64,000 bases of DNA, taken from a virus (lineage: Duplodnaviria; Heunggongvirae; Uroviricota; Caudoviricetes). A program made the position numbers and the translations under genes. The notes under the pieces were generated by a model. It did no database searches. It saw nothing but the letters and a program-made list of their open reading frames with translations, and was not told the origin of the DNA. This document shows, piece by piece, positions 5,197-34,829 of the stretch (positions within the stretch are counted from its first letter, which is position 1; every line of letters starts with the position of its first letter). Location of the stretch: IMG/VR virus record IMGVR_UViG_3300035655_000051, positions 34,232 to 98,231 of that record. One strand, written 5' to 3'.

Positions 5197-5826
5197 TTAT
5201 TCAAACAAATCATTTCGAATACGCGGCATATAAGACCGCTTTTCAGATCGATCAAAAACTTTTTGCAGTTTCCCTGTGCCCCAATCTCCTCTGTCAAACT
5301 CCATAACACACTCGACAAGCACTTTTACATCTTTGCATTCTCGTCGTTTAAGCAACGCTTTTTGCAATTCTGTTTCAAGATAGCACTTTCTAACCGCATT
5401 CGCCTTTGCGAATTCAATGGCATGCTGAAGATCAATAATTTCGAGGCTTACATCGTTTAGCTCTTTACAAGCATCAACATATAATGACTGAATCGATCCA
5501 AGAGTCTCGTCTACAATCAACAGTGCCTGCTTCAGATTATGTAATGTCTCCCCTTCTTTGATTGGAATGCCAGCATCATACTGTTCCTGTTCAGCTCTTC
5601 CAACCTCAGCCATCACGGTCGTTTCTATCCGTCCAAGAATCTCTGAGACACTTTTTACTTTGAATCCTTTATCCTGTAATGCCTTTGGTAGACACGTGAT
5701 TGTCGCTTGTGCTTTTTCAGCCGGAAACAGCAATGCGTCACCAAGGCTGTCCGTTGCGACCAATAAGTTCTCGCTGTTTCTTTTAATGTAGCACGCACCG
5801 TTTGTAATAACACAGTTCATGCGCAT
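5197..5826 (-). CDS. hypothetical protein (209 aa)
   Basis: Protein-like ORF. Confidence 0.5.
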   Translation of the reverse strand: MRMNCVITNGACYIKRNSENLLVATDSLGDALLFPAEKAQATITCLPKALQDKGFKVKSVSEILGRIETTVMAEVGRAEQEQYDAGIPIKEGETLHNLKQALLIVDETLGSIQSLYVDACKELNDVSLEIIDLQHAIEFAKANAVRKCYLETELQKALLKRRECKDVKVLVECVMEFDRGDWGTGKLQKVFDRSEKRSYMPRIRNDLFE

Positions 5827-5858
5827 CCTCCTACCTTATTATAATAGGGGCTTGCAGA

Positions 5859-6467
5859 TCAATGCTCCCGCAGTACTACAGACTGCCCCTTTTTCAACAC
5901 CCAACAGTTCTTGCCGGCATATGCGCAATCTTCACAATGACCGCCACATTCGTTTGCGTCTGCCGGTGCATCGCAAACTCCATTTTTGAACGATACATAA
6001 GCAACTGGTAAATTATAGGTGTTATCCATATTATAACCCGGCCATTCTGAAAATAAAATATGTAAATTTTTGGGAATTTTCTTTTTCGCTGCCAAATACT
6101 GGTTAACGATTTTATACTGTTTTGTGAACGCCAGGAAGTGAGTATGCGGCAACTTACGAGCGACGCGGCACATCATCGCAAGATAATCCTGACTGATAAT
6201 GTCTCCACTGACATGCCACCTAAAATAAAAAGACCCGTAAGCTGCAGCAATTGCTTGCTGTTCGAAGCTGTCAGGGTCTGTCAACCAAAGATTCAGGTTG
6301 TTTTCATATGCGTTTTGTACCGTTCGTCGCCAATCGAAATGACTAACATAGCACGTCTTCGCACAAGGCACGTCAGGCGCACAAGTAACCACTCGTGGCA
6401 TAGAGATGGATTTAACATTACCCATCTTGCTGTTTGCGTTCGACACTGACAGCTTCAACATATTCAA
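5859..6467 (-). CDS. hypothetical Cys-rich protein (202 aa)
   Basis: Cys clusters CAPDVPCAKTCY and CGGHCEDCAYAGKNC suggest a metal-binding protein; family not recognised. Confidence 0.5.
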   Translation of the reverse strand: MNMLKLSVSNANSKMGNVKSISMPRVVTCAPDVPCAKTCYVSHFDWRRTVQNAYENNLNLWLTDPDSFEQQAIAAAYGSFYFRWHVSGDIISQDYLAMMCRVARKLPHTHFLAFTKQYKIVNQYLAAKKKIPKNLHILFSEWPGYNMDNTYNLPVAYVSFKNGVCDAPADANECGGHCEDCAYAGKNCWVLKKGQSVVLREH

Positions 6468-10256: not shown

Positions 10257-10820
10257 TTATACTCCTTCAATATGGCTTGCCATCATGTCTGCCGTGTGCG
10301 TCCAGAGCACGTTTGGATATTTTGCAATGGCGTTGCCATAATACTTCCACTCGTTTGTATCGGTCTCATATGCGCCCATGTGCCAGCGGATACAAGCGAT
10401 CTCCTCTTGGGTCAAGGTAACACAACTCGCCAGCATACAAATGGACTTTTCACCGTGATGACTGTAGATCGAATCATTTGTATAAACGTACTGATAATCA
10501 TTTTCTGTGCTAATCAGCTTGTATTGATCCATTTTGCAAACATCGTGTAGCAGGCCAACAATGAACGAAGAGCCGGGATTGTCCCACTTCAAATCAAGTT
10601 TCTCCGTTAACATCATAAGATTTTTTGCAACGGCCAAACTGTGTTCAGCTAAGCCGCCGGGGTAGTTACCGTGATATTTGGTAGAAGCCGGGGCGTCCCA
10701 GAATCCGTATGTATTAAGAAAATCCTTTACGATAATTGCTTTAGCTGGCATGAAATATTTATCAATCAGCTGATATGCTTCATTCTTAATGTTTTCCGCG
10801 TTCATTTTGCTCCACCTCAT
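10257..10820 (-). CDS. HD-domain phosphohydrolase
   Basis: H...HD signature (GGLAEHSLAV ... GLLHDVCK). Confidence 0.7.
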   Translation of the reverse strand: MRWSKMNAENIKNEAYQLIDKYFMPAKAIIVKDFLNTYGFWDAPASTKYHGNYPGGLAEHSLAVAKNLMMLTEKLDLKWDNPGSSFIVGLLHDVCKMDQYKLISTENDYQYVYTNDSIYSHHGEKSICMLASCVTLTQEEIACIRWHMGAYETDTNEWKYYGNAIAKYPNVLWTHTADMMASHIEGV

Positions 10821-11795: not shown

Positions 11796-12407
11796 TTATT
11801 CCTCGTTCACGATCTCGATCTGGCACATCTTCATAGCTGCCAGCGCATTCTTGTGGGACTCAGGAGTAACACCAGCGCAGCAGCTTGCATCCACAATGAT
11901 AGGAACCTCAGGTAGTGCTGCCTTAAGCAGAAGCGCGTTCGAAATGACACAGATATCCGTGCAAAGGCCGACCAGAGTGATGGAATTGATCTCAAAATCT
12001 GCCATTTCTCCAATTGTAGAGAAATGAGAGTCGCATAAATCTTCCATTAGCAATGTCGAACCGAAAGTTCTCTTTTCGTAAATTTTTGCTTGTGGATCTT
12101 TCATTTCCGGCAAAAGATCGTGTTCGATTTCATCAACAAATAACCAGCCCCTCGTATGTTCGATACAATGTTTTACAGGAAGATGTTTGCCTTCCTGAGT
12201 TTCGAGGTAGTTGTCATAATGCGTATCCTGCGTATACAGAATTTCACCATTCCAGTTCTTGATCTTCTCCATGACCTTTGGCACAATGGCCTGCGCTTCA
12301 GGAGTACCCAGCGAACCGGTGACAAAATCATTCTGCATATCGACAACGATCAGAATATCAACCTTTGTCTTTTCCATTACCAACTCCTCCTTGATTAGCC
12401 CCACCAA
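11796..12407 (-). CDS. isochorismatase-family cysteine hydrolase, nicotinamidase (PncA)-like
   Basis: LIVVDMQNDF (catalytic Asp region) and VGLCTDICV (catalytic Cys) match isochorismatase/PncA motifs. Confidence 0.7.
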   Translation of the reverse strand: MVGLIKEELVMEKTKVDILIVVDMQNDFVTGSLGTPEAQAIVPKVMEKIKNWNGEILYTQDTHYDNYLETQEGKHLPVKHCIEHTRGWLFVDEIEHDLLPEMKDPQAKIYEKRTFGSTLLMEDLCDSHFSTIGEMADFEINSITLVGLCTDICVISNALLLKAALPEVPIIVDASCCAGVTPESHKNALAAMKMCQIEIVNEE

Positions 12408-13159
12408 TTAAACAAGGTTGGGTCATACATAGGCATCGGCAAATCCTTAAACAAATTTGCCTCGTGCATCCGATCGATCTTGGCAGCAGTTGCAGTGTCT
12501 CCGCCAAACTCGCCAGTGCGAATATATTTGTCGAGGAAATCATAGGTGAAGCCGAAATTATCCTCGTCGGTCTTTCCAGTCAGCCCATCTGCAGGCGCTT
12601 TCTCGATGAACTTTTCAGGAAGACCCAACTCACGACCAACGGCTTTTACCTCAGTAACAGTCAGCTTACTGAGAGGACTGAACTGGCCAAATCCATCTCC
12701 TCCAACAGTTTGCCACCCGACGAAATTTTCTGAAGCGTTACAAGTGTTGGCCACTCGCCCATTCATACTCTGAGACACCATGAACAGAGTCGCCATACGA
12801 ATTCGTGCCGGCAGATTCACACGAGCCTGCTTGGAATCACATAGACCAGCTGCCCGTCCATTGGCCAGCAGCGCATTCACAGTCTCAGCGATATTGATCT
12901 CAAAGGACTTGATACCTAGATGCTTAACCAAATCCCGCGCTACATCGATGTCGTCCTGCACCCCTTGCGGCATCAGAACGCCGATCACTCGACCATTACC
13001 AAGCGCTTCACAGCACAGAGCTGCCACAATGCTGGAATCCTTGCCGCCAGAAATACCAACCACAGCATTGCAGTCAGGACCATTCTTGCGGAAATAATTC
13101 TGAATCCACGTAATGATTTCATCCTTTGTCTTTGCTGCATCAAATTCATACTTGCGCAT
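12395..13159 (-). CDS. nadE: NH3-dependent NAD+ synthetase
   Basis: PP-loop VVGISGGKDS; NLPARIRM and GDG/KLTVTEV stretches as in NadE; about 254 aa. Confidence 0.8.
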   Translation of the reverse strand: MRKYEFDAAKTKDEIITWIQNYFRKNGPDCNAVVGISGGKDSSIVAALCCEALGNGRVIGVLMPQGVQDDIDVARDLVKHLGIKSFEINIAETVNALLANGRAAGLCDSKQARVNLPARIRMATLFMVSQSMNGRVANTCNASENFVGWQTVGGDGFGQFSPLSKLTVTEVKAVGRELGLPEKFIEKAPADGLTGKTDEDNFGFTYDFLDKYIRTGEFGGDTATAAKIDRMHEANLFKDLPMPMYDPTLFNWWG

Positions 13160-13160
13160 A

Positions 13161-13649
13161 TTACTTCTCCTCCAGTTTCCATAGTTCTACGTCGACACCT
13201 TGAAATGTAGTATCGATTATTTTCTTAACTGTATTCCAATCAGCCCCACCACGACAACACCCAATCTTATATGGCATTGCTACTTTGAAGCCCTTGCTTC
13301 TTGCTTTTGTTGCGACAGTAGCGAAAGCGTGTTGTAGTGCAGCAAGATCTGTGTATTGTTTTCCATCATATCCGTAATTGTCTTGTGCAAAACAATTAAC
13401 GATACAACGATCATCAGACACCTTCACGAATTGAGCCGTACCCAAGAGAGTATGGTTGTGGTTCGTAATTGCGTTATAGCATCTTTTCAAATATGCGTAA
13501 TACACTTCTGGATAACGCTCGCGAACTTCTTTGGCAACACCTGACCCCATTACACCCTGACAATTCACCTGATGGCAAATAATGTCGGCATCGGAATCAA
13601 ATACGTTGCCTTCTTTGATTACAACAGCCATTAGAACTTCCCTCCCCAC
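13161..13649 (-). CDS. Macro-domain protein (ADP-ribose binding/processing)
   Basis: ICHQVNCQGVMGSGVAKEV matches the macro-domain VNAAN..L..GGGV motif. Confidence 0.65.
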   Translation of the reverse strand: MGREVLMAVVIKEGNVFDSDADIICHQVNCQGVMGSGVAKEVRERYPEVYYAYLKRCYNAITNHNHTLLGTAQFVKVSDDRCIVNCFAQDNYGYDGKQYTDLAALQHAFATVATKARSKGFKVAMPYKIGCCRGGADWNTVKKIIDTTFQGVDVELWKLEEK

Positions 13650-15109
13650 AGTCGGTCACGAACTTCTTTCAAACTGTACTCCTTGACCATCGCGCCATTA
13701 CGGAATACGGTTTGCAGCATGTTCCCGTCAGAATGAGCGGCGTGATCCATTAGGCCATCAGTACAAACCAGCTTTCCAGAATCATCCTTAGTGACATAAC
13801 ACATACCCTTCAGACTCTTCTTAAAGTGATCAGTGTCGGTCTTGGGGTCCTTGAAGATCTGAATCTCCTTGCCATTGACCACGCCATAAGTTGCCTTGAC
13901 TGCCATACCAAAAGTATCACGGGTGAACGGCTTCAACTGACCATTCTGCTCGATGCACTGCATGGAGAAAGAACCAACGCCGAGACTGACATTGTTGCAG
14001 GCGAAGCCGTGTGCTTTGAGTTCTGCATAAATCTTTTCGCAGCGCTGCACCGTAATGGAATCGCCATACAGAGCCTTTACATGAGGGTCTAGCACCTTAT
14101 AACCCTTACTGTTAACCGTGCCGCCGAAGATGTCCCACAGATGATAGACGGTCTGCGTAACGATTTCGACCGGATCGCCAGAGTCACCACGGATTAGCAG
14201 CGTACCATTATGAGCCATGATTTCATCCTTGAGCTGCGGCAGGATATTATCGACCAGATTCCAATAGTCGTAGGAATCAGATACCATGCTGAAGCTCATA
14301 TTGGGATACAACTCAGTCAGTGCCCGGCGGATGAAAGTGATCTCATCGCCATCGACTGCGAAGTTGGAACACATGACGCTATGCTCGGTACTAACAGCGC
14401 CAAACGCGACCGGCTCCTTAGTGCAATCACAGTGATACATCTCTTCCAGATACGGGACTGCAGGAACAGTGGCCGTATTCAAAAAGCTTAGACACCACCC
14501 AGCGCTGGATTTGACAGCAGACTGCATACACTCCTGACCACGGAAACTGAAATCGCCCAGAGCACGAGCATGAGGCACACCATCCTCGACGGTTTCATCG
14601 TAATACTTGTCCACGATATCACGATACAGAGTACCAACCGTCGCAGAAATCATCGGATGCCACAGCTCAGAACTCATAAATGATTCGAGGAACTGCGGAA
14701 CCCATGCAAAATCAGGATGCGTATTGCTCATCTCAAGGAACGGTACATGAATGGGGCAGCGAGTACCCTCGGGCAGTGCTTTGATCTCGACAGGAAGATA
14801 GCCCAGGTCATGCAGGGCAGCAATCTTATCGATATCATAAGCGTCCTTGCCAATGGTTGCGTCCAGGACACGCTGATAATTTGAGACAACCCACTCCTTT
14901 GGGAAATCAAAAAACCAACGTTTAAAATAATTCTGCAGATAATTCTTGCAGAACGCCTGAACACCAAACACAACGACTTCATCCACGCCATCCAGACGGC
15001 TCATGCGCGGAGTAAAATAACTGACCAGCTTAGTGGTGCCGGCCGGAAACTGCTTACTGTGAGTCGTCTTGTAGAAATCACATAGTAGCATCGGGTTAAT
15101 ATTGATCAT
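13631..15109 (-). CDS. nicotinamide phosphoribosyltransferase family protein (NadV/NAMPT-like; possibly a Namat-type nicotinamide ADP-ribose transferase)
   Basis: 492 aa, N-terminus PMLLCDFYKTTHSKQFP typical of the NAMPT family, directly downstream of a PRPP-synthetase-like gene. Confidence 0.8.
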   Translation of the reverse strand: MININPMLLCDFYKTTHSKQFPAGTTKLVSYFTPRMSRLDGVDEVVVFGVQAFCKNYLQNYFKRWFFDFPKEWVVSNYQRVLDATIGKDAYDIDKIAALHDLGYLPVEIKALPEGTRCPIHVPFLEMSNTHPDFAWVPQFLESFMSSELWHPMISATVGTLYRDIVDKYYDETVEDGVPHARALGDFSFRGQECMQSAVKSSAGWCLSFLNTATVPAVPYLEEMYHCDCTKEPVAFGAVSTEHSVMCSNFAVDGDEITFIRRALTELYPNMSFSMVSDSYDYWNLVDNILPQLKDEIMAHNGTLLIRGDSGDPVEIVTQTVYHLWDIFGGTVNSKGYKVLDPHVKALYGDSITVQRCEKIYAELKAHGFACNNVSLGVGSFSMQCIEQNGQLKPFTRDTFGMAVKATYGVVNGKEIQIFKDPKTDTDHFKKSLKGMCYVTKDDSGKLVCTDGLMDHAAHSDGNMLQTVFRNGAMVKEYSLKEVRDRLWGGKF

Positions 15110-15123
15110 TCTAAATATCTCCT

Positions 15124-15324
15124 TTATTTTACTGGGTCGTCTGGTCTAAAAAATGCGGGGCGCTTCACATTCGGATGCGCTTCATCGACATACGCCTCAT
15201 ACACTGCATTAAATTCAAATCCAAAATTATCTTTGATAAGAGGTATTTTAATATACAGTGTTGCATAATAATCTGACGAATCAAAAAAACGACCACCAAC
15301 CTCAATGTCTTTGAACTTTCTCAT
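15124..15324 (-). CDS. hypothetical small protein (66 aa)
   Basis: Short ORF. Confidence 0.35.
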   Translation of the reverse strand: MRKFKDIEVGGRFFDSSDYYATLYIKIPLIKDNFGFEFNAVYEAYVDEAHPNVKRPAFFRPDDPVK

Positions 15325-15333
15325 TCATGTTCC

Positions 15334-15567
15334 TCAGATATCAAGCTTTAGAAGAAAAACATCCACGATTTTTGAAACAACAGACTCATTACTCTTCCAA
15401 GCGTAAACGTCATCAGCGTTGATATAAGATCCATTTTCTGTGTACCAGCACTGTTTGTTGTGATCATAATGACCTTTTACGATATACTTCCCTGCCAGAT
15501 TCACCTTGAACATCACAACCTGACTGTTCATTGCAGGAAGTGCTTTATCTGTATCAATCCAAAACAT
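15334..15567 (-). CDS. hypothetical small protein (77 aa)
   Basis: Short ORF. Confidence 0.35.
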   Translation of the reverse strand: MFWIDTDKALPAMNSQVVMFKVNLAGKYIVKGHYDHNKQCWYTENGSYINADDVYAWKSNESVVSKIVDVFLLKLDI

Positions 15568-15569
15568 AT

Positions 15570-16397
15570 TTAGTCTTCATCCCACTTGTGTTCCAAAACA
15601 GTGATCTTGTCGTGATGGCCGGTGAAGATACTATCCGTGGTATAGACCATATGAATCAGCTCCGGGTCGTCAAACAGATGGCCGCGTTCCTGATTCAGAA
15701 TACTGTTCTCGCAGTGGCTGACATACATATCGATATCACCCGCACCCAGTTCCTTCAGCTTCTTGGCCGAATAGTACATAGTGCCGCCGTAAGAGCAGAT
15801 ATCATCGATCATCAGAACTTTGCCACCCTTGGGAGGATAACCGGTGACATCCAAGCCGAGAATCTTTCCGGTCTTCCAGTCACGCTTCTTGTCTCCGTGA
15901 ATGATATAAGCCTTACAACCCACACGATCGAGTGCCCAGTGAACAGTTTCCTCGTATCGTTTCATTGCGCCGGCATCCGGGAAGTAGATTACATCAGGCT
16001 TACTTTCTTCGATTGCCTGACAAATCTCACGAATCGGAGTGTGTACTTCACAACGATCGATCAGAGCCGGAGCCACATCGCTGTGAGGATCAAATACAAC
16101 AACGCGGTTAAATCCGCACCGATTGATCTCATCGGCAAACCACTTGAGAGTAAACACATCCTCATCGTGATAAGCGCGATCCATACGGGCGTTCGGAATA
16201 TACGGCATAAACAGCTCGACTTCTGCCCCGTTATCCTTTGCGTCCTTTGCGATCATAATGACTGTGGGGAGCTCTGCCATGGATTCAAACGTCCAGACGA
16301 TATTGATCGCATTGAGATAATTGATAGCTTTATCCTTCTTAATCAGCGGAGTGCCATCAGGGAAAGAACTGATTTCATAATAATTTGCTTTGACCAT
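15570..16397 (-). CDS. ribose-phosphate pyrophosphokinase (PRPP synthetase) family protein; possibly Adps-type ADP-ribose pyrophosphokinase
   Basis: 275 aa; PRTase-type PRPP-binding loop VLMIDDICSYGGTM; overall Prs-like layout. Confidence 0.75.
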   Translation of the reverse strand: MVKANYYEISSFPDGTPLIKKDKAINYLNAINIVWTFESMAELPTVIMIAKDAKDNGAEVELFMPYIPNARMDRAYHDEDVFTLKWFADEINRCGFNRVVVFDPHSDVAPALIDRCEVHTPIREICQAIEESKPDVIYFPDAGAMKRYEETVHWALDRVGCKAYIIHGDKKRDWKTGKILGLDVTGYPPKGGKVLMIDDICSYGGTMYYSAKKLKELGAGDIDMYVSHCENSILNQERGHLFDDPELIHMVYTTDSIFTGHHDKITVLEHKWDED

Positions 16398-16408: not shown

Positions 16409-17512
16409 TTAGACCATGTAGTGAATGTCTCTTTCACGAGCACGAGAAATGATGACCTTTGCCACGCCATTATCCTTTTCAAAGGCTTCATAGCGATCTT
16501 TTTCATCCTCTACGTTCTTGGAATACGGATTGACCACATCAACCTTCTTGCCATCAATGAACTGCTCGCCGTTGGCGGGGTTATACTGGATATCCTCGGT
16601 GTTGATGTAGCAATCAGGCCAGAAGCCATCCTTCAGCTTGATCTCAAAATAGATACGCTGTGCACCATTGAACATATCAAAACGCTTGGTGCAGGATGTA
16701 CGGTAACCATCCTTGAATAGAACAGTGATCTTGTAACTGGTCTCGTTCATATTGATGATATTCAGATCCTTGATGGCCTCTGCGAATGGAGTGCCCAGAT
16801 TCAATTCAAAGGCAATAGACCGCAGGCAGTCGTAGTTCAGATCGATCTTGCCAGAAAAATCGACCACAGCTGGGATCTGATCGTAATACTTTTCTTCGAG
16901 CTTATCTTTGAGATAGGTTTCGACCTCGTCAGCGCCCGGGTAATCGAAGCGGAAGTGATAATGGAAGCGGCCGGGACGGTTGACCAGATAATCGTTCAGG
17001 CCATTGAGCTGGTTACAAGTGACAACGAAAAGCTTTTTGCCCGCGCTGGTGCCATCAAACAGACTCAGCATTGTATCCTGCGGATTTTCATTGTCCCGGG
17101 ACTTGAAGGTCTTATCAAACTCGTCAAACAGGATCATAACTTCCTGATTGATGGATTCGATAAAATTGGCGATACCGCCGATATAGCGGTTAGCCAGAAT
17201 TACAGGATAGCCCCGCTTAATGGCCTCGATTGCAATCATCTTAGCGGTCAGAGATTTGCCGATGCCTTTATTGCCGCTGAGAATGACACCCAAGTTGCGG
17301 TTGAACGCTTTGAACGAATTCAACACTTTAGCAACCTTGCCACTCTGGACACCATACACCTTTTCGTTGATGACCATATCAGGGCGGCGGGACAGATAGA
17401 AACCGGTCATCTCAGAACAGTGGATATCATAGGTACCCGCCGGGATCTTGTCATACGCCTTCATATCGTCGCCATACAGGAACAGATTGCTTGCGCTTTC
17501 AACAACTTTCAT
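16409..17512 (-). CDS. AAA+ ATPase
   Basis: Walker A GNKGIGKS, Walker B ILFDEFD, second region of homology NRPGRFHYHF. Confidence 0.7.
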   Translation of the reverse strand: MKVVESASNLFLYGDDMKAYDKIPAGTYDIHCSEMTGFYLSRRPDMVINEKVYGVQSGKVAKVLNSFKAFNRNLGVILSGNKGIGKSLTAKMIAIEAIKRGYPVILANRYIGGIANFIESINQEVMILFDEFDKTFKSRDNENPQDTMLSLFDGTSAGKKLFVVTCNQLNGLNDYLVNRPGRFHYHFRFDYPGADEVETYLKDKLEEKYYDQIPAVVDFSGKIDLNYDCLRSIAFELNLGTPFAEAIKDLNIINMNETSYKITVLFKDGYRTSCTKRFDMFNGAQRIYFEIKLKDGFWPDCYINTEDIQYNPANGEQFIDGKKVDVVNPYSKNVEDEKDRYEAFEKDNGVAKVIISRARERDIHYMV

Positions 17513-17933: not shown

Positions 17934-18206
17934 TTACAGTAACGACCGACAAACAAGACATTTTGCCGTGCCAACAAACATATCATCAGTCCAATGTTTA
18001 CTATGGTTGTCTTCTTCGATTCGGTAGTATTCTCCAACTTCAGCAATCGTCACAATTTTTCCAGCAAGTTTCATTCTTTCTTCTAATGACCACTTGACTG
18101 TTATAGTATATCCGGGATTGTTATTCCGATCTCGCATATGATACTCTTCGTATTGCACAAAATTATCGATTAAACACACCTTATCCCCAACTTTGTAACG
18201 AGCCAT
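17934..18206 (-). CDS. CKSLL-tail family member 1 (ends ...CLVCRSLL)
   Basis: YKVGDKV... N-terminal module shared with 20559, 20826, 21127, 22233 and 28934; conserved C-terminal tail. Confidence 0.65.
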   Translation of the reverse strand: MARYKVGDKVCLIDNFVQYEEYHMRDRNNNPGYTITVKWSLEERMKLAGKIVTIAEVGEYYRIEEDNHSKHWTDDMFVGTAKCLVCRSLL

Positions 18207-20278
18207 TAAATCACCACTTTCAGAACTCGCTCAGTAGCCCCCTGCACCTTAACAATGAAGGAATCATGCTTCGTCTCAGAGAAGCCAACGCCAGACAGCT
18301 GGTCATCTACCGACTGAACTGCCATCTGAGAACCGAGAGCCTCAAATACTCGCTTATGCTGTAGCAGTTCTGCCTTCAGGAATTCGTTGTAGAAACCATT
18401 GGGCTTTTCAGGATTGATACAATCCTTGAGCATGAAGAAGTAGTGACGGTTGCCATTACCAGTCTGCTCATCCCAATAGTTCGGAGAGTACATGGCCACA
18501 GAAACAGGCACAAACTGATTGGAGTTCACACCCCAGATCTCGCGGGTGCTAGTAGAACTGGGCAGCAGCTCTTTGATAGAGAACTTGCCATCCTTCAGCG
18601 TGACTTTTGCCACGGCGACATCCTGACCCTGATGCAGTGGCTTATCATAGTTAAACGAGTAGATGTTGCCGTCGAATTCAATCTCGGCACGGAAACCAGT
18701 TTTACCACCACGACTAGCAAAACATCTCACATAGAAGCTGTACTCGCCTTCCTTCATCTTTTTGATATCAGGCCATGTAATATTTTCGACCGCAGCTTTA
18801 CCCTGATTAGGACGAGTGATATCCACATCCAAGCGGCCATTAGTACGAGGATTCCAACAGTTGCCGAAGTAGATGTGATTCTTATCGGGTTCAATGCAAT
18901 GAGCATCCTCATCATTTGCATCGTACTCACCCGGCACATCGTTCCACTGAATCGAGAAACGCAGCACACCGTCCACTTTACCGCCAGCAGCCTTAACGTT
19001 TTCGCGAATATCACTGTCTGTCATATTACCGGTATACGCCCAACTGAAACCATTAGGCCACTTGAACATACTCGGCGCATTCTTATCCTGCGGAGCAATC
19101 AGAGACATCATATTCTTCTCGAAACGATTCTCCATGAATAGTTCCAGCCCAGTCGCAGTCGGCAACACATTTTTGATGAACTTGTCAATGCTGATTTCCT
19201 CTGCACGGTTAAACTTCTTGGGATCAATCGCAACAGTCTTAGCCATTGCCTCAAACGGATTTGTAGCACCAGCAATACGAGGAGCGGCATCACGGTTGCA
19301 GAACAGGATATTGTTTGCGGTGATATCGTCCAGAGTAGCAAACCGACGACCCAGACTGTTCATATAACCCAGCTCGGTGACAGTCTTCTGTGCATCTTCC
19401 AACATCTTCTTGGTGAAAATCGCCTTGGGACGCTTATAGTTTGCGGGAGCGACAACCTTCTCAAAAGCAGTCACAGCGGAATCCACATCCATGCCTTCGC
19501 TCAGATTGATAAGAAGGGCGCCGATAGCGGTGTTACGAATACGAAGCTGCGCCGCCGTAGCATATGTAGGAGCAAGCCATACAAAGGCAAGCTTTTCATT
19601 AACAGACAGCTTGTCATAATCAATCTTATCGTGCTTAAACTCCTTTACAGACCGCTCAAACTCCTTGCCGCGATACAGACTATTCTGAGCAATCAGCTCT
19701 AGCACAGTATCAACAGCCTCCATGGTTAGCTCTTCCAGAGAACGCTTAAACACGTTTGCGGAGTCACGCCACTGTGCCATCTTGGTAGCTACGTCATCTC
19801 CACTGGTAATAAAACGCTGCGGAATCTTTACTGCGAAATGATCCCAAGTATGTACATCCTTGTGGTTTTCATCGTACTCGTAGTTCATCTCGGTGCCGAA
19901 CATGTCCCCAGAACCGATCATATTGCGACTGACAAAGTACGGATTCACAATGGCGCGGCTCTTTACATAGGCGGCCAGTGCATCAACAACAGGCTGATAT
20001 TTGGCAGACTTTGCATCGAAATCCCAGATGGAAATCAAATTATAATTCTTGTCAAACGCCACCAACTTGCCGATATTCTTTACAAAACGGCGGCAGCAGG
20101 AACAATCGTACTCGCGCCGCTTACGGAACAGCTCATTCGTGCCAGCCGGGAAGCTGTCAAGATACAGATTGTACAGTTCATCCTCGTCAGCGTCAGTGAC
20201 AAACAGGGGATTCTCACTCTTCACCATCTCATTGAAGTGGTCCTGCAGCAGCGCACGAAATTTCTTGAAATCAGACAT
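18206..20278 (-). CDS. large hypothetical protein (690 aa)
   Basis: Uninterrupted protein-like ORF; no motif recognised by eye. Confidence 0.7.
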   Translation of the reverse strand: MSDFKKFRALLQDHFNEMVKSENPLFVTDADEDELYNLYLDSFPAGTNELFRKRREYDCSCCRRFVKNIGKLVAFDKNYNLISIWDFDAKSAKYQPVVDALAAYVKSRAIVNPYFVSRNMIGSGDMFGTEMNYEYDENHKDVHTWDHFAVKIPQRFITSGDDVATKMAQWRDSANVFKRSLEELTMEAVDTVLELIAQNSLYRGKEFERSVKEFKHDKIDYDKLSVNEKLAFVWLAPTYATAAQLRIRNTAIGALLINLSEGMDVDSAVTAFEKVVAPANYKRPKAIFTKKMLEDAQKTVTELGYMNSLGRRFATLDDITANNILFCNRDAAPRIAGATNPFEAMAKTVAIDPKKFNRAEEISIDKFIKNVLPTATGLELFMENRFEKNMMSLIAPQDKNAPSMFKWPNGFSWAYTGNMTDSDIRENVKAAGGKVDGVLRFSIQWNDVPGEYDANDEDAHCIEPDKNHIYFGNCWNPRTNGRLDVDITRPNQGKAAVENITWPDIKKMKEGEYSFYVRCFASRGGKTGFRAEIEFDGNIYSFNYDKPLHQGQDVAVAKVTLKDGKFSIKELLPSSTSTREIWGVNSNQFVPVSVAMYSPNYWDEQTGNGNRHYFFMLKDCINPEKPNGFYNEFLKAELLQHKRVFEALGSQMAVQSVDDQLSGVGFSETKHDSFIVKVQGATERVLKVVI

Positions 20279-21402: not shown

Positions 21403-22218
21403 TTATTCTCCTTCAAACCAGTCGGAAACATTCTCAGCGACTTCATCAAGTTTTTCCTGATCCATTTTGATATATCTCATCGTAATACGTTGGTCGCTGT
21501 GATTAAATTTTGTTTGAAGAATATTCAAGATGTTCGCTCCATCAACTGTACCCTCGGCGCTTTGTAATGCTGCCATAGCATAAGTTTTACGCATACTATG
21601 AGTGGATAGCTCAATGTCCAAACCGCACGCCTTACCAGCTTTCTTCAAAAGGTTGCTCACCGATCTAACGTTAAGCTGTCCACCTTTCTTGCTCTGAAAA
21701 AGAAGCGTGTCACGGTCAATTCGAAAACTAATTGCCTGATAATATTCTCTTAAAGCTTCTTTTGCCATATGAGAAATTTTACACACGTTTCGCTTGCCGG
21801 TCTTCTGCTCGATCAGCTCAACATGATCTTTTACATGAGCGTTCTCATAATAAACATCAGCCGTTTTAAGCTTCAACAAATCGCCGCATCGAACACCAAT
21901 TGAACAGCCGAGAATAAACATCGTTTTGTTTCTAAGCGCGATTTCTTCAGATCCGTTAGACCCAAGGTACTCAACAATCTTCTTGAAATCTTCCTTTGAC
22001 TTGATAGGATCTGCCGGGGTTGGCTTTCTGCGCCCATCCTTGAGATAAAGACTATCCGTCCGACGAGGTTTCCGTGCTTTTTTCGTTGCAGTGGCACTTT
22101 TAACTGCCTGCTGAATAATTCGTTCAATATCGTCCTCTGTAACGACGAGTTTTGCAGGCCGATCTTCAACTGGGAAAAGAATGGTTTTTTGTGCCACTTT
22201 CTTTGCGGTTTCTGCCAT
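21403..22218 (-). CDS. tyrosine site-specific recombinase (phage integrase family)
   Basis: C-terminal catalytic region ...ELSTHSMRKTYAMAA...MRYIKMD has the R...HxxR...Y arrangement; 271 aa. Confidence 0.75.
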   Translation of the reverse strand: MAETAKKVAQKTILFPVEDRPAKLVVTEDDIERIIQQAVKSATATKKARKPRRTDSLYLKDGRRKPTPADPIKSKEDFKKIVEYLGSNGSEEIALRNKTMFILGCSIGVRCGDLLKLKTADVYYENAHVKDHVELIEQKTGKRNVCKISHMAKEALREYYQAISFRIDRDTLLFQSKKGGQLNVRSVSNLLKKAGKACGLDIELSTHSMRKTYAMAALQSAEGTVDGANILNILQTKFNHSDQRITMRYIKMDQEKLDEVAENVSDWFEGE

Positions 22219-22836: not shown

Positions 22837-23175
22837 TTACTTGGATTCTTTGTCCTGTTTTCGCAGTTCATCAACAAGACATTCCAAACAGCTCTGTAGA
22901 GCGTCGTGTCCGGCCTCAAGCATTGCCTGATGAATATTCACTTCAAAATCACACAAGAGATCTGCACATAAGCTCATATCCTCTGCATCGATTTCTTTGA
23001 TGCCAAGCTCCTTGATTGCGCTTGCAACGTCGGAAGGCCCCCAATAGACCATTGCTCTGTGGTCGTCGATATCCAACAGGTCAACTGGACACCCGATGGA
23101 TTCCTCTACGACACTTGCCGCTTGATCGAGCAATTCAACTGGAGTGCCGCCATCTCTACACATCATTTCAATCAT
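22837..23175 (-). CDS. small acidic protein co-transcribed with the RT (112 aa)
   Basis: Its start overlaps the RT stop (ATGA); acidic and Cys-containing; no motif recognised. Confidence 0.5.
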   Translation of the reverse strand: MIEMMCRDGGTPVELLDQAASVVEESIGCPVDLLDIDDHRAMVYWGPSDVASAIKELGIKEIDAEDMSLCADLLCDFEVNIHQAMLEAGHDALQSCLECLVDELRKQDKESK

Positions 23176-24410
23176 TAGAAAACAACTCCTTCTTTTGGTT
23201 TTAAGTCAGCTTTGAGCATTGCCATCATATCAACATGATACTTTTCGTTGTACCGAGAAATCACCGTGTCGACCGATTCTTTTTCTACCATACGGTAGTA
23301 ATTCAGCCTGCCATTAAACTGCTGCAGGTCTTCAAGATCCCACGTTTTTCCTTCTTTCTTGCAGACGATGTAATTAGATGCCATCTTCTTAAAGTCCTTA
23401 AAATTGCGCCATCCGACTGTGATATCGTTATTGGCATTCCACATCAGACCGAGCATCCAGTTTTCGCTCGAATGCCGATTACCATAATGCGTTTTTTCTT
23501 CATTCAAAGTAAACGGAGCATTGATTGCATCCAACATCTCTTTGATGATATCCTGCATTTCCATCGGGTCAAAACTCAAATAGCAGCTGATGGTGATATC
23601 GTCTGCATATCTGGTGTATGTAAAAGTGCGAGAAATGCCGTCTTTCATGGTATATTTGTAAGAAAGCTTCTTATTTAACATATAATCAAACGGGATCATC
23701 ATAACGTTCGTGATCCACGGACTGATTGGCGTTCCCTGCGGAAGACCGCCGTTCAAGAAGCACAGGCGCATCGCTTTAGTCAGCTGGTTGTATCCATTTC
23801 GATCCTTCATAATGAGAGAAAACGGATAAATCTTGCTGAACATGCCGTAGATAAACTCAGGAGTGGAGCTCGGGAAGAATCCATGAAAGTCAAACTTGAC
23901 AGCCCAGTTGTTTTCATAGGTGACGATCTTTTCTTTCCCAGTCTCACGATCTTTTACTGTATATCTGTGTCCCGCCTGATGCTTTTTAATTGCACTCAGA
24001 GTGCCGCGCCCATTGATATATGCGTGTGCTGCCGTGTGATAATCAGCAATCATGAAACTTTTTAACAGCGTCCGCAACTCAACCAACGCATCGCTCAGTT
24101 CATTGTTCGGTGCATCAATTGGACGAACGCCACCAGTCTTCTTAGGAATTTCGAAGTGATAGTAATGCGTCGACAGGTCACGTACCGCTTCAAGACGGGC
24201 GTATTTCTGATTGAATTCCGTAAGCCGTGTAATCATATTGGTAACGTTTGTAATGGCTACGAGACGATCATTCAACCCATTACGCTGTACAGTTCGAGTA
24301 GAAGTTTCATCGCCAGCATATTTTAACTGGTTCACGTCAACGACTCCGCTAAGGATTTCATCAAACGTAATCTGCCTTGTTCTCGGCGGATTCCAATAAG
24401 TAACGTACAT
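23175..24410 (-). CDS. reverse transcriptase (retron/group-II-like, YADD type)
   Basis: RT motifs FEIPKKTGGVRPIDAP (1/2), LPQGTPISP (4), TYTRYADDITIS (5), FTLNEEKTHYG (6/7). 411 aa, no endonuclease domain. Confidence 0.85.
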   Translation of the reverse strand: MYVTYWNPPRTRQITFDEILSGVVDVNQLKYAGDETSTRTVQRNGLNDRLVAITNVTNMITRLTEFNQKYARLEAVRDLSTHYYHFEIPKKTGGVRPIDAPNNELSDALVELRTLLKSFMIADYHTAAHAYINGRGTLSAIKKHQAGHRYTVKDRETGKEKIVTYENNWAVKFDFHGFFPSSTPEFIYGMFSKIYPFSLIMKDRNGYNQLTKAMRLCFLNGGLPQGTPISPWITNVMMIPFDYMLNKKLSYKYTMKDGISRTFTYTRYADDITISCYLSFDPMEMQDIIKEMLDAINAPFTLNEEKTHYGNRHSSENWMLGLMWNANNDITVGWRNFKDFKKMASNYIVCKKEGKTWDLEDLQQFNGRLNYYRMVEKESVDTVISRYNEKYHVDMMAMLKADLKPKEGVVF

Positions 24411-24702: not shown

Positions 24703-25377
24703 TTATGCAGCCGTAACGTTAAAAGTGTACGGATTTGCAACGATCATTTTCTTCAAAGGTGCGATATTGGTCGCGAAATTGATAAAGTTCGTAACCGCCA
24801 AACAACACACGAAACGAACAGTCGGGGCGAGACCTTGAACGATGCCACATGCAGAAACCGGAGTGCCAGCCTGCGCATCTTCATGAGAGAAGTTCATAGA
24901 ATTCCATAAATTCTCTCGGTCTTTTTCCTTGCTCCAATCCGCTGCCCAGCACTGTGCATCATGGAATCCAGTGCGGACATCAAACACGCCCTTGATGTTC
25001 GGGTTGTACTTGTTCGCTTCCATGAACTGCTTGCGAATTTCGATGTTGTCGACCGCGAGGAACACATAACCGCGAATCATCTCGCCCTGCCAACCATTCG
25101 GCTTCAGAACGATTTCATCTTTGGCATCAGGATTGATGGCACAGATAATATCGCGAACCGCCTCGACTTTTGGAGCTTCAATATTGTTGGCGAAGAACAT
25201 CTGGTTGACGATATTCTTGCTTTCAACCTCGTCCATATCCCACAGCGTGAAATTCTTCAGACCATACCGTGCGAGAAGTTCCGCCACGGTAGAGCCAACC
25301 GAACCACAACCAATAATGTGGATCTGGCCGCTGATATCATCGGGGTTGAATACCATTTCAAGCTTACTCAGATTCAT
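24703..25377 (-). CDS. E1-like (ThiF/MoeB-family) ubiquitin-activating-type enzyme
   Basis: IHIIGCGSVGSTVAELLARYG (GxGxxG Rossmann), DMDEVESKNIVNQ and KVEAVRDIICAINP match the ThiF/E1 adenylation-domain pattern. Confidence 0.75.
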   Translation of the reverse strand: MNLSKLEMVFNPDDISGQIHIIGCGSVGSTVAELLARYGLKNFTLWDMDEVESKNIVNQMFFANNIEAPKVEAVRDIICAINPDAKDEIVLKPNGWQGEMIRGYVFLAVDNIEIRKQFMEANKYNPNIKGVFDVRTGFHDAQCWAADWSKEKDRENLWNSMNFSHEDAQAGTPVSACGIVQGLAPTVRFVCCLAVTNFINFATNIAPLKKMIVANPYTFNVTAA

Positions 25378-30378: not shown

Positions 30379-30464
30379 TGGTGCGCCCGGCGGGACTTGA
30401 ACCCGCACGCCATCTCTGGCAGAAGATCTTAAGTCTCCTGTGTCTGCGATTCCACCACGGGCGC
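30379..30464 (-). tRNA. tRNA-Leu (anticodon TAA), type II
   Basis: Acceptor GCGCCCG/CGGGCGC + A + CCA, anticodon loop CTTAAGA, long variable arm, T-arm GCGGGTTCAAGTCCCGC. Confidence 0.8.
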
Positions 30465-30772
30465 ATATAAAAGAAAATCAGAAACAGCCAACATTCGTTT
30501 TACGTTCCAGTTTACTGGCTACCTGAAGGGTATTCGTCCGACAGCTACTCGGCTTGCACCTTATTCCCCTTCCTATTTGGCTCAGTATCATTTACCGGTG
30601 TGATACCTGTCGTTTGCCAATGAACGGCCAATCCCCGATCTAGCTGGAACAACTGATTTTCTATTCCTCATTTAGTTAGAGACCTAATGAGTAAAGATGT
30701 CTACCTACACCGGTTGTGGACGGACTTACCCGGCTGGATTTCTATGTAGGAGTCTCAAACCGTCGCACACAA

Positions 30773-30847
30773 TGGAGCAGCGAATGGGAGTCGAACCCAC
30801 GCCATCGACTTGGAAGGACGATGTACTAGCCGTTATACGACCGCTGC
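30773..30847 (-). tRNA. tRNA (probable Gly, anticodon TCC; one anticodon-stem mismatch)
   Basis: Acceptor GCAGCGG/TCGCTGC + CCA, T-arm GTGGG-TTCGACT-CCCAT, anticodon loop CTTCCAA. Confidence 0.55.
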
Positions 30848-30966
30848 ATATAAACCCGGCTTACTAAGCCTTATTGCCACAGCATACGCCATGGAGCCGG
30901 GAATAACAAGGAAGAAAAGAGGTAAAGCCCGAATAGGAGGAATGAGACCCTATAAGCGGGCATCGG

Positions 30967-31035
30967 AGTGACTGGTTGGACTTGAACCAACGGCGCGCAG
31001 TTAGCTTGCTGCTCTACCATCTGAGCTACAGTCAC
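30967..31035 (-). tRNA. atypical short tRNA-like gene (68 nt, anticodon arm and variable loop about 4 nt too short)
   Basis: Perfect acceptor GTGACTG/CAGTCAC, canonical D-arm GCTCAGATGGTAGAGC and T-arm GTTGG-TTCAAGT-CCAAC. Only 19 nt remain for the anticodon arm plus variable loop, with a possible GCAG/CTGC stem and 8-nt loop. Confidence 0.4.
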
Positions 31036-31188
31036 ATAAAATACTCGGCTTACAAAGGTCAACTGCACTCTTTCAAGTGAGCCGAGAATAATTGACGAAG
31101 AAGTATAAAAATGAACTCCCCCTTTCGGGGTGGTATCTCGCACAGGCGCGGCCGGATCTGACCGCTAAAGATCCTACCCATACGAGAT

Positions 31189-31275
31189 TGGTGCTCACAA
31201 GAAGACTCGAACTTCCACGTCATAAAAGACAAGGGACCCTAAAACCCTCGCGGCTGCCAGTTTCGCCATGTGAGC
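31189..31275 (-). tRNA. tRNA-Leu (anticodon TAG), type II
   Basis: Acceptor GCTCACA/TGTGAGC + A + CCA, D-arm GGCGAAACTGGCAGCCGC, anticodon loop TTTAGGG, long variable arm, T-arm TGGAAGTTCGAGTCTTCT. Confidence 0.6.
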
Positions 31276-31412
31276 ATATCAAGAGCAGGGTTGCGTACCT
31301 GCTACGACTTGTTCAGTCACGGTTGTCTTATGTTTGGAGGGACACGAAAACAACTAATCCGATATAAAGGAGAAATATGAGAATACGAGGGACGCAATGA
31401 CCAAACGCCCCA

Positions 31413-31498
31413 TGGTGCAGCTAGTCGGATTTGAACCGACACGGATTTTCACCAGCAGATTTTGAGTCTGCCGCGCCTGCCTATTACGCCATAGCTGC
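31413..31498 (-). tRNA. tRNA-Leu (anticodon CAA), type II
   Basis: Acceptor GCAGCTA/TAGCTGC + A + CCA, anticodon stem GCAGA/TCTGC with loop CTCAAAA, long variable arm, T-arm CGGTTCAAATCCG. Confidence 0.8.
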
Positions 31499-34218: not shown

Positions 34219-34296
34219 TACTAAAAAATGGTGGGCCAGGAGGGATTTGAACCCCCGATCAAGCAGTTATGAGCTGCCGGCTTTAACCAGACTAAG
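34219..34296 (-). tRNA. tRNA-Met/fMet (or lysidine-modified Ile) (anticodon CAT)
   Basis: Acceptor GGGCTAG/CTGGCCC + A + CCA, D-arm GCTTAGTCTGGTTAAAGC, anticodon stem GGCAG/CTGCT with loop CTCATAA, T-arm GGGGG-TTCAAAT-CCCTC. Confidence 0.8.
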
Positions 34297-34675: not shown

Positions 34676-34725
34676 AACCTAGCTGGAACCCAACAGAATC
34701 GAACTGTTGTACGACCATCGGCTCC
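34676..34725 (-). ncRNA. tRNA-like minihelix (acceptor plus T-arm only)
   Basis: Minus strand GGAGCCG-ATGGTCGTAC-AACAG-TTCGATT-CTGTT-GGGTTCC-A: canonical T-arm and a 6/7-paired acceptor stem, but no D-arm or anticodon arm. Confidence 0.35.
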
Positions 34726-34829
34726 ATATAAAGCAGGGTTATCGTACCTGCTCGGCATTTTCAGCCACGCGGTTTCGCCTAATGGAAACCGTTTTTATAC
34801 ACACAATAGGCACAGGTAGAAAGGAAAGA

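Follow-up and report, generated by a model that had tools for sequence, protein, structure and literature searches.

A phage gene island with a predicted nicotinic acid route from ADP-ribose and nicotinamide to NAD+

Does a phage that carries a kinase and transferase pair resembling NAD+ reconstitution pathway 1 (NARP1) next to three further genes of NAD+ metabolism rebuild NAD+ by the described reaction, or by another one? The question is raised by positions 11796-16397 of the window, as we call the whole stretch of 64,000 nucleotides of viral DNA that was analysed, where seven closely packed minus-strand genes run in the same direction (Table 1). NARP1 consists of Adps and Namat (Osterman et al. 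2024, bioRxiv 10.1101/2024.02.11.579819), and the structure of Namat has been reported (Lan et al. 2026, PMC12774641). An earlier note on this DNA had claimed five of the genes as a NARP1-like pair extended by macro-domain, NadE and PncA-like proteins. All five are present where it had placed them, with family matches in Pfam, NCBIfam and PHROG that are strong and beyond chance. Two gene starts were revised. For the macro gene (previously called as 13161-13649), ATG 13631 is the most likely start; it shares the letters TAATG with the stop codon of the transferase gene and lies behind a GGGGAGGG ribosome-binding site. For the nicotinamidase gene (previously called as 11796-12407), the most likely start is ATG 12377, with a GGAGG site ahead of it. 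Two small ORFs, absent from the earlier note, lie in the 460 bp between the kinase and transferase genes of the window. They are found in some close relatives only, and across loci this slot varies from -3 to about 1600 bp and is filled with interchangeable small ORFs; we regard both as variable cargo outside the core of the module.

Table 1: Genes of the island (positions of the window).
Gene product	Position	Strand	Length	Remark
Adps-like kinase (ribose-phosphate-pyrophosphokinase homologue)	15570..16397	-	275 aa	
Small ORF	15334..15567	-	77 aa	no Pfam, NCBIfam or PHROG match; putative variable cargo
Small ORF	15124..15324	-	66 aa	no Pfam, NCBIfam or PHROG match; putative variable cargo
Namat-like transferase, NAMPT family, 'Ala-type'	13631..15109	-	492 aa	
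Macro-domain protein, Adpp-like	13161..13631	-	156 aa	length from ATG 13631
NH3-dependent NAD+ synthetase NadE	12395..13159	-	254 aa	
PncA-type nicotinamidase, isochorismatase superfamily	11796..12377	-	193 aa	length from ATG 12377

The kinase matches PHROG 619 ('ribose-phosphate pyrophosphokinase', 1.7e-61), and none of the curated NCBIfam Prs models reaches its cutoff with this protein, TIGR01251 giving 85.6 bits against a cutoff of 113 where verified Adps proteins score 96-124. It shares 37% identity with SPbetaL1 Adps, whose biochemistry has been characterised, with solved Prs enzymes at 38-61 bits, and in the alignment it keeps the catalytic lysine (K162 of SPbetaL1) within DKKRD. In a bootstrapped NJ tree five Prs (human, E. 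coli, Burkholderia and two archaeal) are split from all Adps-like proteins at 100%, and the module kinases form one clade with the SPbetaL1- and FADO-type Adps (98%), surrounded by lineages in which NARP1 has experimental support. SPbetaL1 Adps is reported to convert ADPR and to give no product in an assay designed for Prs activity, and 97% of Adps genes adjoin a Namat homologue; kinase and transferase genes are adjacent in nearly all of the 262 loci that we collected. We predict that the kinase converts ADP-ribose and ATP into ADPR-pyrophosphate (ADPR-PP). The choice between PRPP and ADPR-PP had been held to be unreadable from the sequence; the phylogenetic placement does allow a usable reading, which favours ADPR-PP but is not decisive.

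The transferase belongs to PF04095 and PF18127 and matches PHROG 448 (2.8e-162) and NF006629 (462 bits), a model that carries the name 'nicotinate phosphoribosyltransferase', as do the bacterial homologues in their sources. Among solved structures SPbetaL1 Namat (9w5w/9w5x) comes closest to it, with 435 bits versus about 186 for human and Xanthomonas Nampt, and the AF2 model (pLDDT 93) aligns to 9w5x with a Foldseek TM of 0.91-0.93 and to Nampt with 0.87. H. ducreyi NadV is also nearer to the window transferase than human NAMPT is, and therefore the similarity to Namat alone does not prove the use of ADPR-PP. The H. ducreyi protein was deposited as NadV and crystallised with NMN.

We scored the 20 NAD+ contacts of the Namat crystal structure in 91 dereplicated sequences and found fixed differences at the two nicotinamide-pocket positions only: the Asp215 position is Ala in 88 and Ser in three of them, and the Ala242 position is Ser in all 91. 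The window transferase carries both changes (Asp215 to Ala, Ala242 to Ser) as well as Gly213 to Asn, and its Ala for Asp215 recurs in all 120 closest homologues. The remaining contacts are mostly kept in the window protein, including Arg40 (here Arg38), Phe392, Thr398, Arg399, Asp400, the catalytic His and Arg306. Among the 91 sequences the adenine and phosphate contacts, which the NadV outgroups lack, are retained (Arg40 in 88, Phe392 in 90, Thr398, Arg399 and Asp400 in every one), and the catalytic core residues His, Arg306, Asp308, Phe189 and Tyr15' are invariant across the module proteins. The SCL loop also has the length found in Namat, including the stacking Arg (TPRMSR aligned to TPRTSR of SPbetaL1). 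Unlike in NARP1, however, the SCH signature motif of the window-type transferases is interrupted by a hairpin of 9-16 residues. The window protein reads GSFSMQC-IEQNGQLKP-FTRD, with Phe at position 3 and position 7 displaced by nine extra residues, a break in the published Namat signature motif. This insertion, GSFSMQCIEQNGQLKPFTRD, is modelled as a hairpin by AF2 and shifts Tyr396, one of three adenine-stacking residues, out of place; it could alter the binding of ADPR-PP.

In NAMPT, Asp219 sets the substrate specificity, D219S switching substrate affinity and D219A abolishing activity, and Namat D215A shows an approximately 8-fold loss of NAD+ synthesis. Because the Asp that binds the amide of nicotinamide is missing and the Namat signature motif is broken, the transferase probably does not perform the described NARP1 reaction, in which nicotinamide and ADPR-PP give NAD+. 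We predict that it joins nicotinate and ADPR-PP to form nicotinic acid adenine dinucleotide (NaAD). Aligned with Adps/Namat and Prs/NadV sequences, as the earlier note had proposed, the island has an Adps-side kinase and a transferase with the adenine clamp retained and the nicotinamide pocket switched. The NARP1-like pair that it had claimed is borne out by the clade of the kinase and by the closeness of the transferase to crystallised Namat, but not by Asp215 or the signature motif.

The pocket switch is mirrored in the gene neighbourhoods, which we counted within 6 kb in the 262 loci. Where the 215 position is Asp or Glu (39 loci), neither a nicotinamidase nor a NadE gene is present at any locus, whereas nearly all of the 223 loci with Ala or Ser have nicotinamidase, NadE and the kinase, in several gene orders; going by the genome loci listed, many exceptions are due to contigs that are cut short. 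As the covarying transferases form a single monophyletic clade (100% bootstrap), this covariation represents one or two evolutionary events and must not be counted 223 times. The macro, NadE and PncA-like genes are linked to the kinase-transferase pair in more than 200 loci, and the linkage of the module is kept through at least four gene orders, divergence to 51% identity and swaps of short and long NadE. The macro protein accompanies the module in phages, and the same other four genes (kinase, transferase, NadE and nicotinamidase) are found in chromosomes of Lachnospiraceae and Ruminococcus, usually adjoining NrtR, an ADP-ribose-responsive repressor that is a direct neighbour in 36 of the roughly 54 bacterial loci that are complete; PARG flanks one. 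This company of macro protein, NrtR and PARG speaks for an ADPR setting. The four core genes are a chromosomal operon in gut Clostridia and not phage-specific. The linkage agrees with the extended route that had been suggested for the macro, NadE and PncA-like genes, but a deamidated route would seem to require both NadE and the nicotinamidase, which do not look like optional extras. The macro-domain addition, one part of what had been thought to go beyond the described two-gene pathway, has since been described as NARP1-AP, which combines Adps, the macro-domain phosphatase Adpp and Namat (bioRxiv 10.64898/2026.01.28.702374).

NadE exceeds the cutoff of TIGR00552 (168.8 bits, cutoff 63.65) and matches PF02540 at 1.3e-49; its best solved relatives are NH3-dependent NAD synthetases (top hit 2e18, 111 bits), and the SGGxDS ATP-binding loop is present as GISGGKDSS. 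We predict that it converts NaAD into NAD+. The nicotinamidase matches PF00857 with 78 bits, and its best solved relative is the Pyrococcus horikoshii nicotinamidase 1ILW (56 bits), most other matches being nicotinamidases too. With 29.5 bits it stays below the cutoff of 174 of the NCBIfam equivalog PRK11609, a model built on E. coli-type PncA. Of its catalytic triad, Lys94 and Cys133 are found in 182 of 182 module homologues and Asp10, like the nicotinamidase-specific metal ligands Asp52, His54 and His71, in 179-181 of them, the remainder being alignment gaps; conversion of nicotinamide into nicotinate is the predicted reaction. The macro protein (PF01661; PHROG 335 'phosphatase', 4e-43) is 31% identical to the macro protein that accompanies NARP1 in Pseudomonas phage PN09 (E 5e-21) and 27% to Adpp from Vibrio phage Gary, a characterised enzyme (E 8e-12), and shares with NARP1-associated macro proteins the motifs HQxNC...SG[IV]A, GQ.YG and IGxG.GGxDW. 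Of the solved structures, the macro domain of DarG is nearest (44.5 bits; NF048014, 72 bits), with Poa1p at 23 bits. It is predicted to free ADP-ribose, for example by dephosphorylation of ADPR-1''-phosphate.

The analysis shows directly which genes and families are present, which active-site residues are kept or replaced, where the proteins fall in the trees and how constantly the genes stay linked; every substrate and product and the anti-defence role we infer. We think that the island is, somewhat more probably than not, a 'deamidated NARP1', a self-contained system that would rebuild NAD+ from ADP-ribose and nicotinamide via nicotinic acid. The nicotinamidase would turn nicotinamide into nicotinate, the Adps-like kinase would produce ADPR-PP from ADP-ribose and ATP, the Ala-type transferase would condense nicotinate and ADPR-PP directly to NaAD in an undescribed reaction, and NadE would use ATP and ammonia to complete NAD+. 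As proposed, these four enzymes would make the pathway complete without an adenylyltransferase. The macro protein may supply extra ADPR from ADPR-1''-phosphate or other ADP-ribosyl adducts, like Adpp in NARP1-AP. The phage would likely use the island to keep NAD+ available against its breakdown by host defences or metabolism, and in gut Clostridia the chromosomal operon, often beside NrtR, may recycle endogenous ADPR. Any advantage of the ATP-costly detour of deamidation and re-amidation is speculative.

Several known systems share parts of this scheme. Like NARP1, the island has a Prs-derived kinase side by side with a NAMPT-derived transferase, but the window-type pair is nearly always accompanied by nicotinamidase and NadE, its predicted product is NaAD and not NAD+, and its core set is common in bacterial chromosomes as well. 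The macro-domain gene within the operon and its motifs recall NARP1-AP, from which the island differs in the low identity of this protein, in a sequence that is closer to the macro domain of DarG than it is to Poa1p, in the position of the gene after the transferase and not between the two core genes, and in the deamidated remainder of the pathway. Preiss-Handler salvage, encoded by pncA-pncB-nadD-nadE operons such as the NrtR-controlled one of Clostridium acetobutylicum (PMC2330246), likewise begins with nicotinamidase and ends with NadE, with NaAD as penultimate compound, and NrtR also stands beside many bacterial copies of the module; here, in contrast, the Adps-like kinase and Namat-like transferase stand in for PncB and NadD, and ADP-ribose, instead of PRPP and ATP, would provide the ribosyl-adenylate part already assembled. 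The prs-nadV operons under NrtR in Shewanella and Acinetobacter (PMC2330246) resemble the module in having a second Prs paralogue, a NAMPT-family gene and an ADPR-sensing repressor, but those tabulated there contain neither pncA nor nadE, a comparison made by gene content and not by sequence. NARP2 (NadV and NMNAT/Nudix) and NARP3 (PnuC and NadR; PMC13464706) are also phage-encoded means of NAD+ replenishment, but use other enzymes and amidated intermediates (NMN, nicotinamide riboside).

The main rival of deamidated NARP1 is an analogue of the Preiss-Handler pathway in which ADP-ribose is no substrate: the Prs-like enzyme would make PRPP, the Ala-type transferase would form NaMN from nicotinate and PRPP, host NadD or a phage NMNAT would give NaAD and NadE would finish. 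The Asp-to-Ala/Ser switch and the link to nicotinamidase and NadE fit this use of nicotinate equally well, Namat accepts PRPP in vitro according to the literature, and classical nrtR-pncA-pncB-nadD-nadE operons are known in Clostridium (PMC2330246). The interrupted SCH clamp motif with the displaced Tyr396 also agrees with it, and at 7-8 viral loci an NMNAT-like gene with the motifs GRFQTFHKGH and ISATMVR lies within or beside the module (e.g. 5377-5955 of locus L068), which suggests a mononucleotide intermediate at least there. However, Pfam revealed no adenylyltransferase among the 20 larger ORFs of the window, phmmer with the L068 protein as query found no NMNAT-like ORF in the 64 kb, NMNAT, NadR and PnuC were not detected in the window ORFs examined, and no adenylyltransferase was detected near most loci or is among the frequent bacterial neighbours of the module, although the lack of nadD in the operon counts for little, since the bacterial hosts have a NadD themselves. 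Furthermore, the kinase belongs to the Adps clade, where its neighbour is an enzyme reported to be without Prs action, it is linked to the transferase at nearly every locus although PRPP is available in cells anyway, no prs is among the genes of the classical pncA-pncB operons that PMC2330246 tabulates, and the adenine clamp (Arg40, Phe392, Thr398, Asp400), which would be needless for PRPP, is kept. We consider this route unlikely. No paper was found that describes either deamidated NARP1 or this PRPP/NaMN route.

A blend of both models, an Ala/Ser-type transferase that takes ADPR-PP as well as PRPP with nicotinate, would combine ADPR recycling as in NARP1 with extra NAD+ from PRPP as in NARP2, the NMNAT-like genes completing the second branch in some phages. 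SPbetaL1 Namat already has both activities, the NMNAT-like gene is patchily present, and Adps-like partner and clamp residues are both retained. Nothing specific argues against this blend, which sequence cannot separate from its two parents, but SPbetaL1 Namat given both donors made only NAD+ according to the literature, and we find it improbable. Least credible, and in our view very improbable, is an ordinary NARP1-AP making NAD+ from nicotinamide and ADPR-PP, with nicotinamidase and NadE as independent genes that merely boost the Preiss-Handler pathway of the host. The gene-level likeness to Adps-macro-Namat operons and the high overall similarity to Namat speak for it, yet the nicotinamide-binding Asp is missing from 223 of 223 module transferases and NAMPT and Namat with corresponding mutations are crippled towards nicotinamide, the substrate would be destroyed by a nicotinamidase expressed alongside, and the strict co-occurrence over rearranged gene orders in phages and bacteria is not explicable by chance adjacency.

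In summary we see about an even chance that nicotinate and ADPR-PP react to NaAD in a third kind of entry into NAD+ synthesis, with ADP-ribose replacing PRPP and the adenylyltransferase step, which abundant gut Clostridia (Lachnospiraceae, Ruminococcus, Oscillospiraceae) would encode in an operon often beside NrtR, and which large gut phages would carry with a macro-domain feeder against NAD+-depleting immunity. If true, this would add a new reaction and the flow from ADPR via ADPR-PP to NaAD to a metabolic map thought essentially complete, and two pocket positions (Asp versus Ala/Ser, and Ala versus Ser) would allow amidated NARP1-type transferases in databases to be told apart from deamidated ones. 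It would also widen the set of NAD+ reconstitution strategies and give a clue to the hosts and defences met by large gut phages. NARP1-type chemistry would then be core metabolism of common gut bacteria and not a phage weapon only, with a bearing on how the gut microbiota handle nicotinamide and nicotinate.

The island comprises seven genes on the same strand with short or overlapping gaps (see the table), and the gene families that the earlier note had assigned to it were borne out by strong Pfam, NCBIfam and PHROGs scores. The most likely, refined start of the macro gene overlaps the transferase stop codon as TAATG behind a GGGGAGGG site, and the likewise refined start of the last gene is preceded by a GGAGG site. 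Promoter-like and terminator-like sites between positions 11000 and 18300 were not above the shuffled expectation, which is consistent with co-transcription of the island genes, and no riboswitch was found near the island by Rfam. The window is phage DNA: its 93–99% identical relatives are contigs of mostly 50–150 kb from the viral collection, one related 35-kb GenBank record comes from human faeces, and phage-typical genes are present along with 12 tRNAs, which lie in four clusters. The protein cluster that contains the window transferase (P0001, 90% identity) represents 2,626 sequences, which means that the lineage of this phage is frequent in public metagenome data. Among the relatives (L001–L073) the kinase–transferase gap is a hot spot of small ORFs, ranging from −3 to about 1600 bp and filled with interchangeable cassettes, among them the two small ORFs of the window, a Cys-rich ORF of 85–89 aa, ORFs of 130–157 aa and ORFs of 54–57 aa. 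Further away, the region with the reverse transcriptase and the integrase-family gene might belong to a diversity-generating retroelement, to a retron or to the remnant of a group II intron.

Features of the island and its surroundings in the window, and related genes in other collected loci (L numbers; positions are those of the respective locus)
Feature	Position	Strand	Remark
Whole island	11796-16397	-	
Prs-like/Adps-like kinase	15570-16397	-	275 aa; first in transcription order
Two small ORFs	15124-15567	-	77 and 66 aa; between kinase and transferase; no family match
NAMPT-family transferase	13631-15109	-	492 aa
Macro-domain protein	start ATG 13631	-	after transferase in transcription order
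NadE		-	after macro gene in transcription order; family match
Isochorismatase-family protein (nicotinamidase)	start ATG 12377	-	last gene of island
AAA/nSTAND3-type ATPase	16409-17512	-	367 aa; immediately upstream of kinase
HD-domain phosphohydrolase	10257-10820	-	187 aa; weak match; about 1 kb downstream of island
ORF	18206-20278	-	690 aa; no Pfam match
Phage-integrase-family gene	21403-22218	-	near RVT_1
Reverse transcriptase RVT_1	23175-24410	-	
ThiF-family (E1-like) protein	24703-25377	-	followed by 298-aa and 505-aa ORFs without Pfam match, to 27793
tRNA genes (four clusters)	182-818, 1693-1764, 30382-31498, 34232-34916	-	twelve genes
Type-P5 twister ribozyme RF02684	42384-42474	-	46.5 bits; gathering score 37.6
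NMNAT-like gene, L068	5377-5955		
NMNAT-like gene, L090	3261-4040		
NMNAT-like gene, L091	8246-8836		
NMNAT-like gene, L249	12005-12655		
NMNAT-like gene, L252	10517-11092		
NMNAT-like gene, L253	11505-12080		
NMNAT-like gene, L254	8604-9045		
Conserved ORF, L076-L078	9481-9816		111 aa; no recorded Pfam family; between transferase and long NadE in some Lachnospiraceae operons

In NARP1, Adps converts ADPR and ATP into ADPR-PP, from which Namat forms NAD+ with nicotinamide (bioRxiv 10.1101/2024.02.11.579819). The window kinase retains the catalytic Lys and shows 37% identity to Adps of SPbetaL1 and 40–42% to its bacterial counterparts, compared with only 38–61 bits against solved Prs enzymes, and like verified Adps it scores near or below the TIGR01251 cutoff. 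In a bootstrapped neighbour-joining tree with five Prs outgroups, Prs and Adps-like kinases were separated in 100% of replicates and the module kinases grouped with SPbetaL1/FADO-type Adps in 98%, placing them among the lineages with experimental support for NARP1; these were represented by SPbetaL1, FADO, Bas63 (with the Felixounavirus phage Barry as stand-in) and the mycobacteriophage DyoEdafos (with Krypton555 as stand-in). Canonical salvage by Prs and NadV was rejected because the kinase falls below every Prs cutoff and is nested in the Adps clade and because the transferase resembles Namat much more than Nampt.

The best solved relatives of this transferase are the two crystal structures of SPbetaL1 Namat (435 bits), followed by NadV from H. 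ducreyi (325 bits) and the Nampt enzymes from Xanthomonas and human (about 186 bits). Its AlphaFold2 model (pLDDT 93) superimposes on Namat with a TM score of 0.91–0.93, and this predicted structure confirmed the Namat fold while being silent on ligand preference. The contacts between Namat and NAD+ have been defined in a 2026 structure paper, in which Asp215 (SPbetaL1 numbering, used throughout) contacts the nicotinamide amide and adenine is held by a ‘selectivity clamp’ consisting of the SCL loop with Arg40 and the SCH motif GS-X-Phi-X-Phi-X-Phi-TRD with Phe392 and Tyr396 (PMC12774641). In the window protein the nicotinamide pocket is altered, with Asp215 replaced by Ala, Ala242 by Ser and the neighbouring Gly213 by Asn; in its own numbering these are Ala213, Ser240 and Asn211. 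When 91 dereplicated module proteins were compared with 31 Namats carrying Asp at this position, the 20 published ligand contacts showed fixed differences only at Asp215 and Ala242, besides Tyr396, which is displaced by an insertion of 9–16 residues. AlphaFold2 predicts a short helix and then a beta-hairpin for this insertion, the hairpin covering about residues 386–394 of the window protein. At Ser190, roughly half of the module proteins have Asp, so that this position varies without being a fixed difference. Arg40, Phe392, Thr398, Arg399, Asp400, the catalytic His, Arg306 and Asp308 are all kept, and the adenine-binding half of the site is mostly Namat-like. The NadV outgroups instead show GMGGGLLQ and a shorter loop. 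NadV from H. ducreyi (PDB 9ke8/9keo) is much nearer to the window protein and Namat than human NAMPT and has the 11-residue motif spacing of Namat (GAQTYQRNTRD), but not the equivalents of Phe392 and Arg40, showing that the boundary between Namat and Nampt is not simply set by similarity.

Asp219 of NAMPT, according to reviews citing Khan et al. 2006, sets substrate specificity, with D219S listed as switching substrate affinity and D219A as inactivating the enzyme, and the D215A exchange in Namat lowers the activity with nicotinamide about 8-fold (PMC12774641). The pocket change is therefore of the kind expected for a switch from an amide to a carboxylate substrate. The NARP1 pairing proposed in the earlier note holds in so far as the kinase lies in the Adps clade and the transferase is nearest to Namat, but two defining Namat features are missing, for which reason plain NARP1 or NARP1-AP was rejected as a full description; likewise, the comparison with characterised Adps and Namat suggested there gave an Adps-like kinase and conserved adenine contacts but a changed nicotinamide pocket. 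NARP3, consisting of PnuC and NadR (PMC13464706), proved to be unrelated.

In 262 loci that encode a full-length transferase, taken from viral contigs and bacterial genomes, we compared the residue at the Asp215 column with the gene content within 6 kb. None of the 39 loci with Asp or Glu carries a nicotinamidase homologue or NadE, whereas nicotinamidase, NadE and kinase accompany the transferase in almost all of the 216 loci with Ala and the 7 with Ser; the exceptions among the listed genome loci are mostly truncated contigs, five having downstream room yet no NadE. The linkage persists down to 51% transferase identity and across different gene orders, which are kinase–transferase–macro–NadE–nicotinamidase in the window lineage and nicotinamidase–kinase–transferase–(macro)–NadE in other loci, with the macro gene standing first or 5 kb away in a few. 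As all Ala/Ser transferases form one clade (100% bootstrap), the covariation points to one or two origins that were then maintained over a long time, as opposed to many separate events.

Among solved structures the isochorismatase-family protein comes closest to the nicotinamidase from Pyrococcus horikoshii, its other matches there being mostly nicotinamidases, and nearly all 182 module homologues keep the Asp-Lys-Cys triad and the nicotinamidase-typical Asp/His/His metal site, the exceptions being alignment gaps. NadE scores above the cutoff of its equivalog model and is similar to ammonia-dependent NAD synthetases. Two types of NadE are found in the module, mostly the short ammonia type and in about 20 loci the long glutamine type, and the short type is also found in 53 bacterial loci, which weakens the argument for an independent recruitment of the short NadE by phages. 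NARP1-AP adds the macro-domain phosphatase Adpp, which converts ADPR-1''-phosphate into ADPR and occurs in 15% of NARP1-carrying phages (2026 preprint, bioRxiv 10.64898/2026.01.28.702374). The macro protein of the island has motifs in common with the macro proteins associated with NARP1 and a match to Gary Adpp (E 8e-12), yet its sequence is no further from DarG-type macro domains than from these.

By their source names, the homologues nearest to the transferase (64–68% identity) come from Lachnospiraceae and further Clostridia, and they are located on large chromosomal contigs amid ordinary cellular genes, in the order nicotinamidase–kinase–transferase–NadE. This arrangement was found in eighty genome loci, mostly from Lachnospiraceae, Ruminococcus and Oscillospiraceae and a few from Elusimicrobia. 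Among the 148 genes flanking about 54 complete bacterial loci, 36 encode NrtR (NUDIX plus NrtR winged helix), an ADP-ribose-responsive repressor of NAD genes, and no adenylyltransferase family recurs. The paper defining NrtR already noted unexplained prs-nadV operons as well as classical nrtR-pncA-pncB-nadD-nadE operons (PMC2330246); compared to the latter, the module has Adps-like and Namat-like genes in place of pncB and nadD.

On balance we lean towards a four-step route, the simplest one in which each conserved gene has a role and nothing else is required: nicotinamide would be converted into nicotinate and ADPR into ADPR-PP, both would be joined to NaAD, and NaAD would finally yield NAD+. 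Its main rival, in which nicotinate and PRPP give NaMN and NadD is then needed, seems rather unlikely given the nesting of the kinase in the Adps clade, its near-universal linkage to the transferase and the conserved adenine contacts. In its favour the clamp motif is interrupted, and an NMN/NaMN adenylyltransferase-like gene (about 192 aa, with GRFQTFHKGH and ISATMVR motifs) lies within the module or next to it in 7–8 viral loci, which are a minority and mostly have a Ser-type transferase. This gene, of which the window has no copy, counts against the route via ADPR-PP and NaAD, and its presence in L068 and six to seven other viral loci rules out that an adenylyltransferase never accompanies the module. 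A transferase accepting both donors, which sequence alone does not separate from the ADPR-PP and PRPP models, appears improbable, and an ordinary NARP1-AP standing beside unrelated neighbours is very unlikely.

If NAD+ is indeed rebuilt via NaAD, the deamidated detour might pay off where free nicotinamide is scarce owing to an active nicotinamidase of the host; alternatively, the ATP-driven NadE step might render the reconstitution irreversible. The macro addition is already known (published as NARP1-AP), as is bacterial NARP1. Full-text searches, with most subscription journals outside their scope, found no literature linking ADPR-PP, Namat or NARP1 to nicotinate, NaAD, NadE or nicotinamidase and no prior description of phage combinations of NadE, PncA and Prs. 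What is new here is the prediction, specific enough to be tested, of a reaction in which nicotinate and ADPR-PP would form NaAD and of which no earlier description was found.
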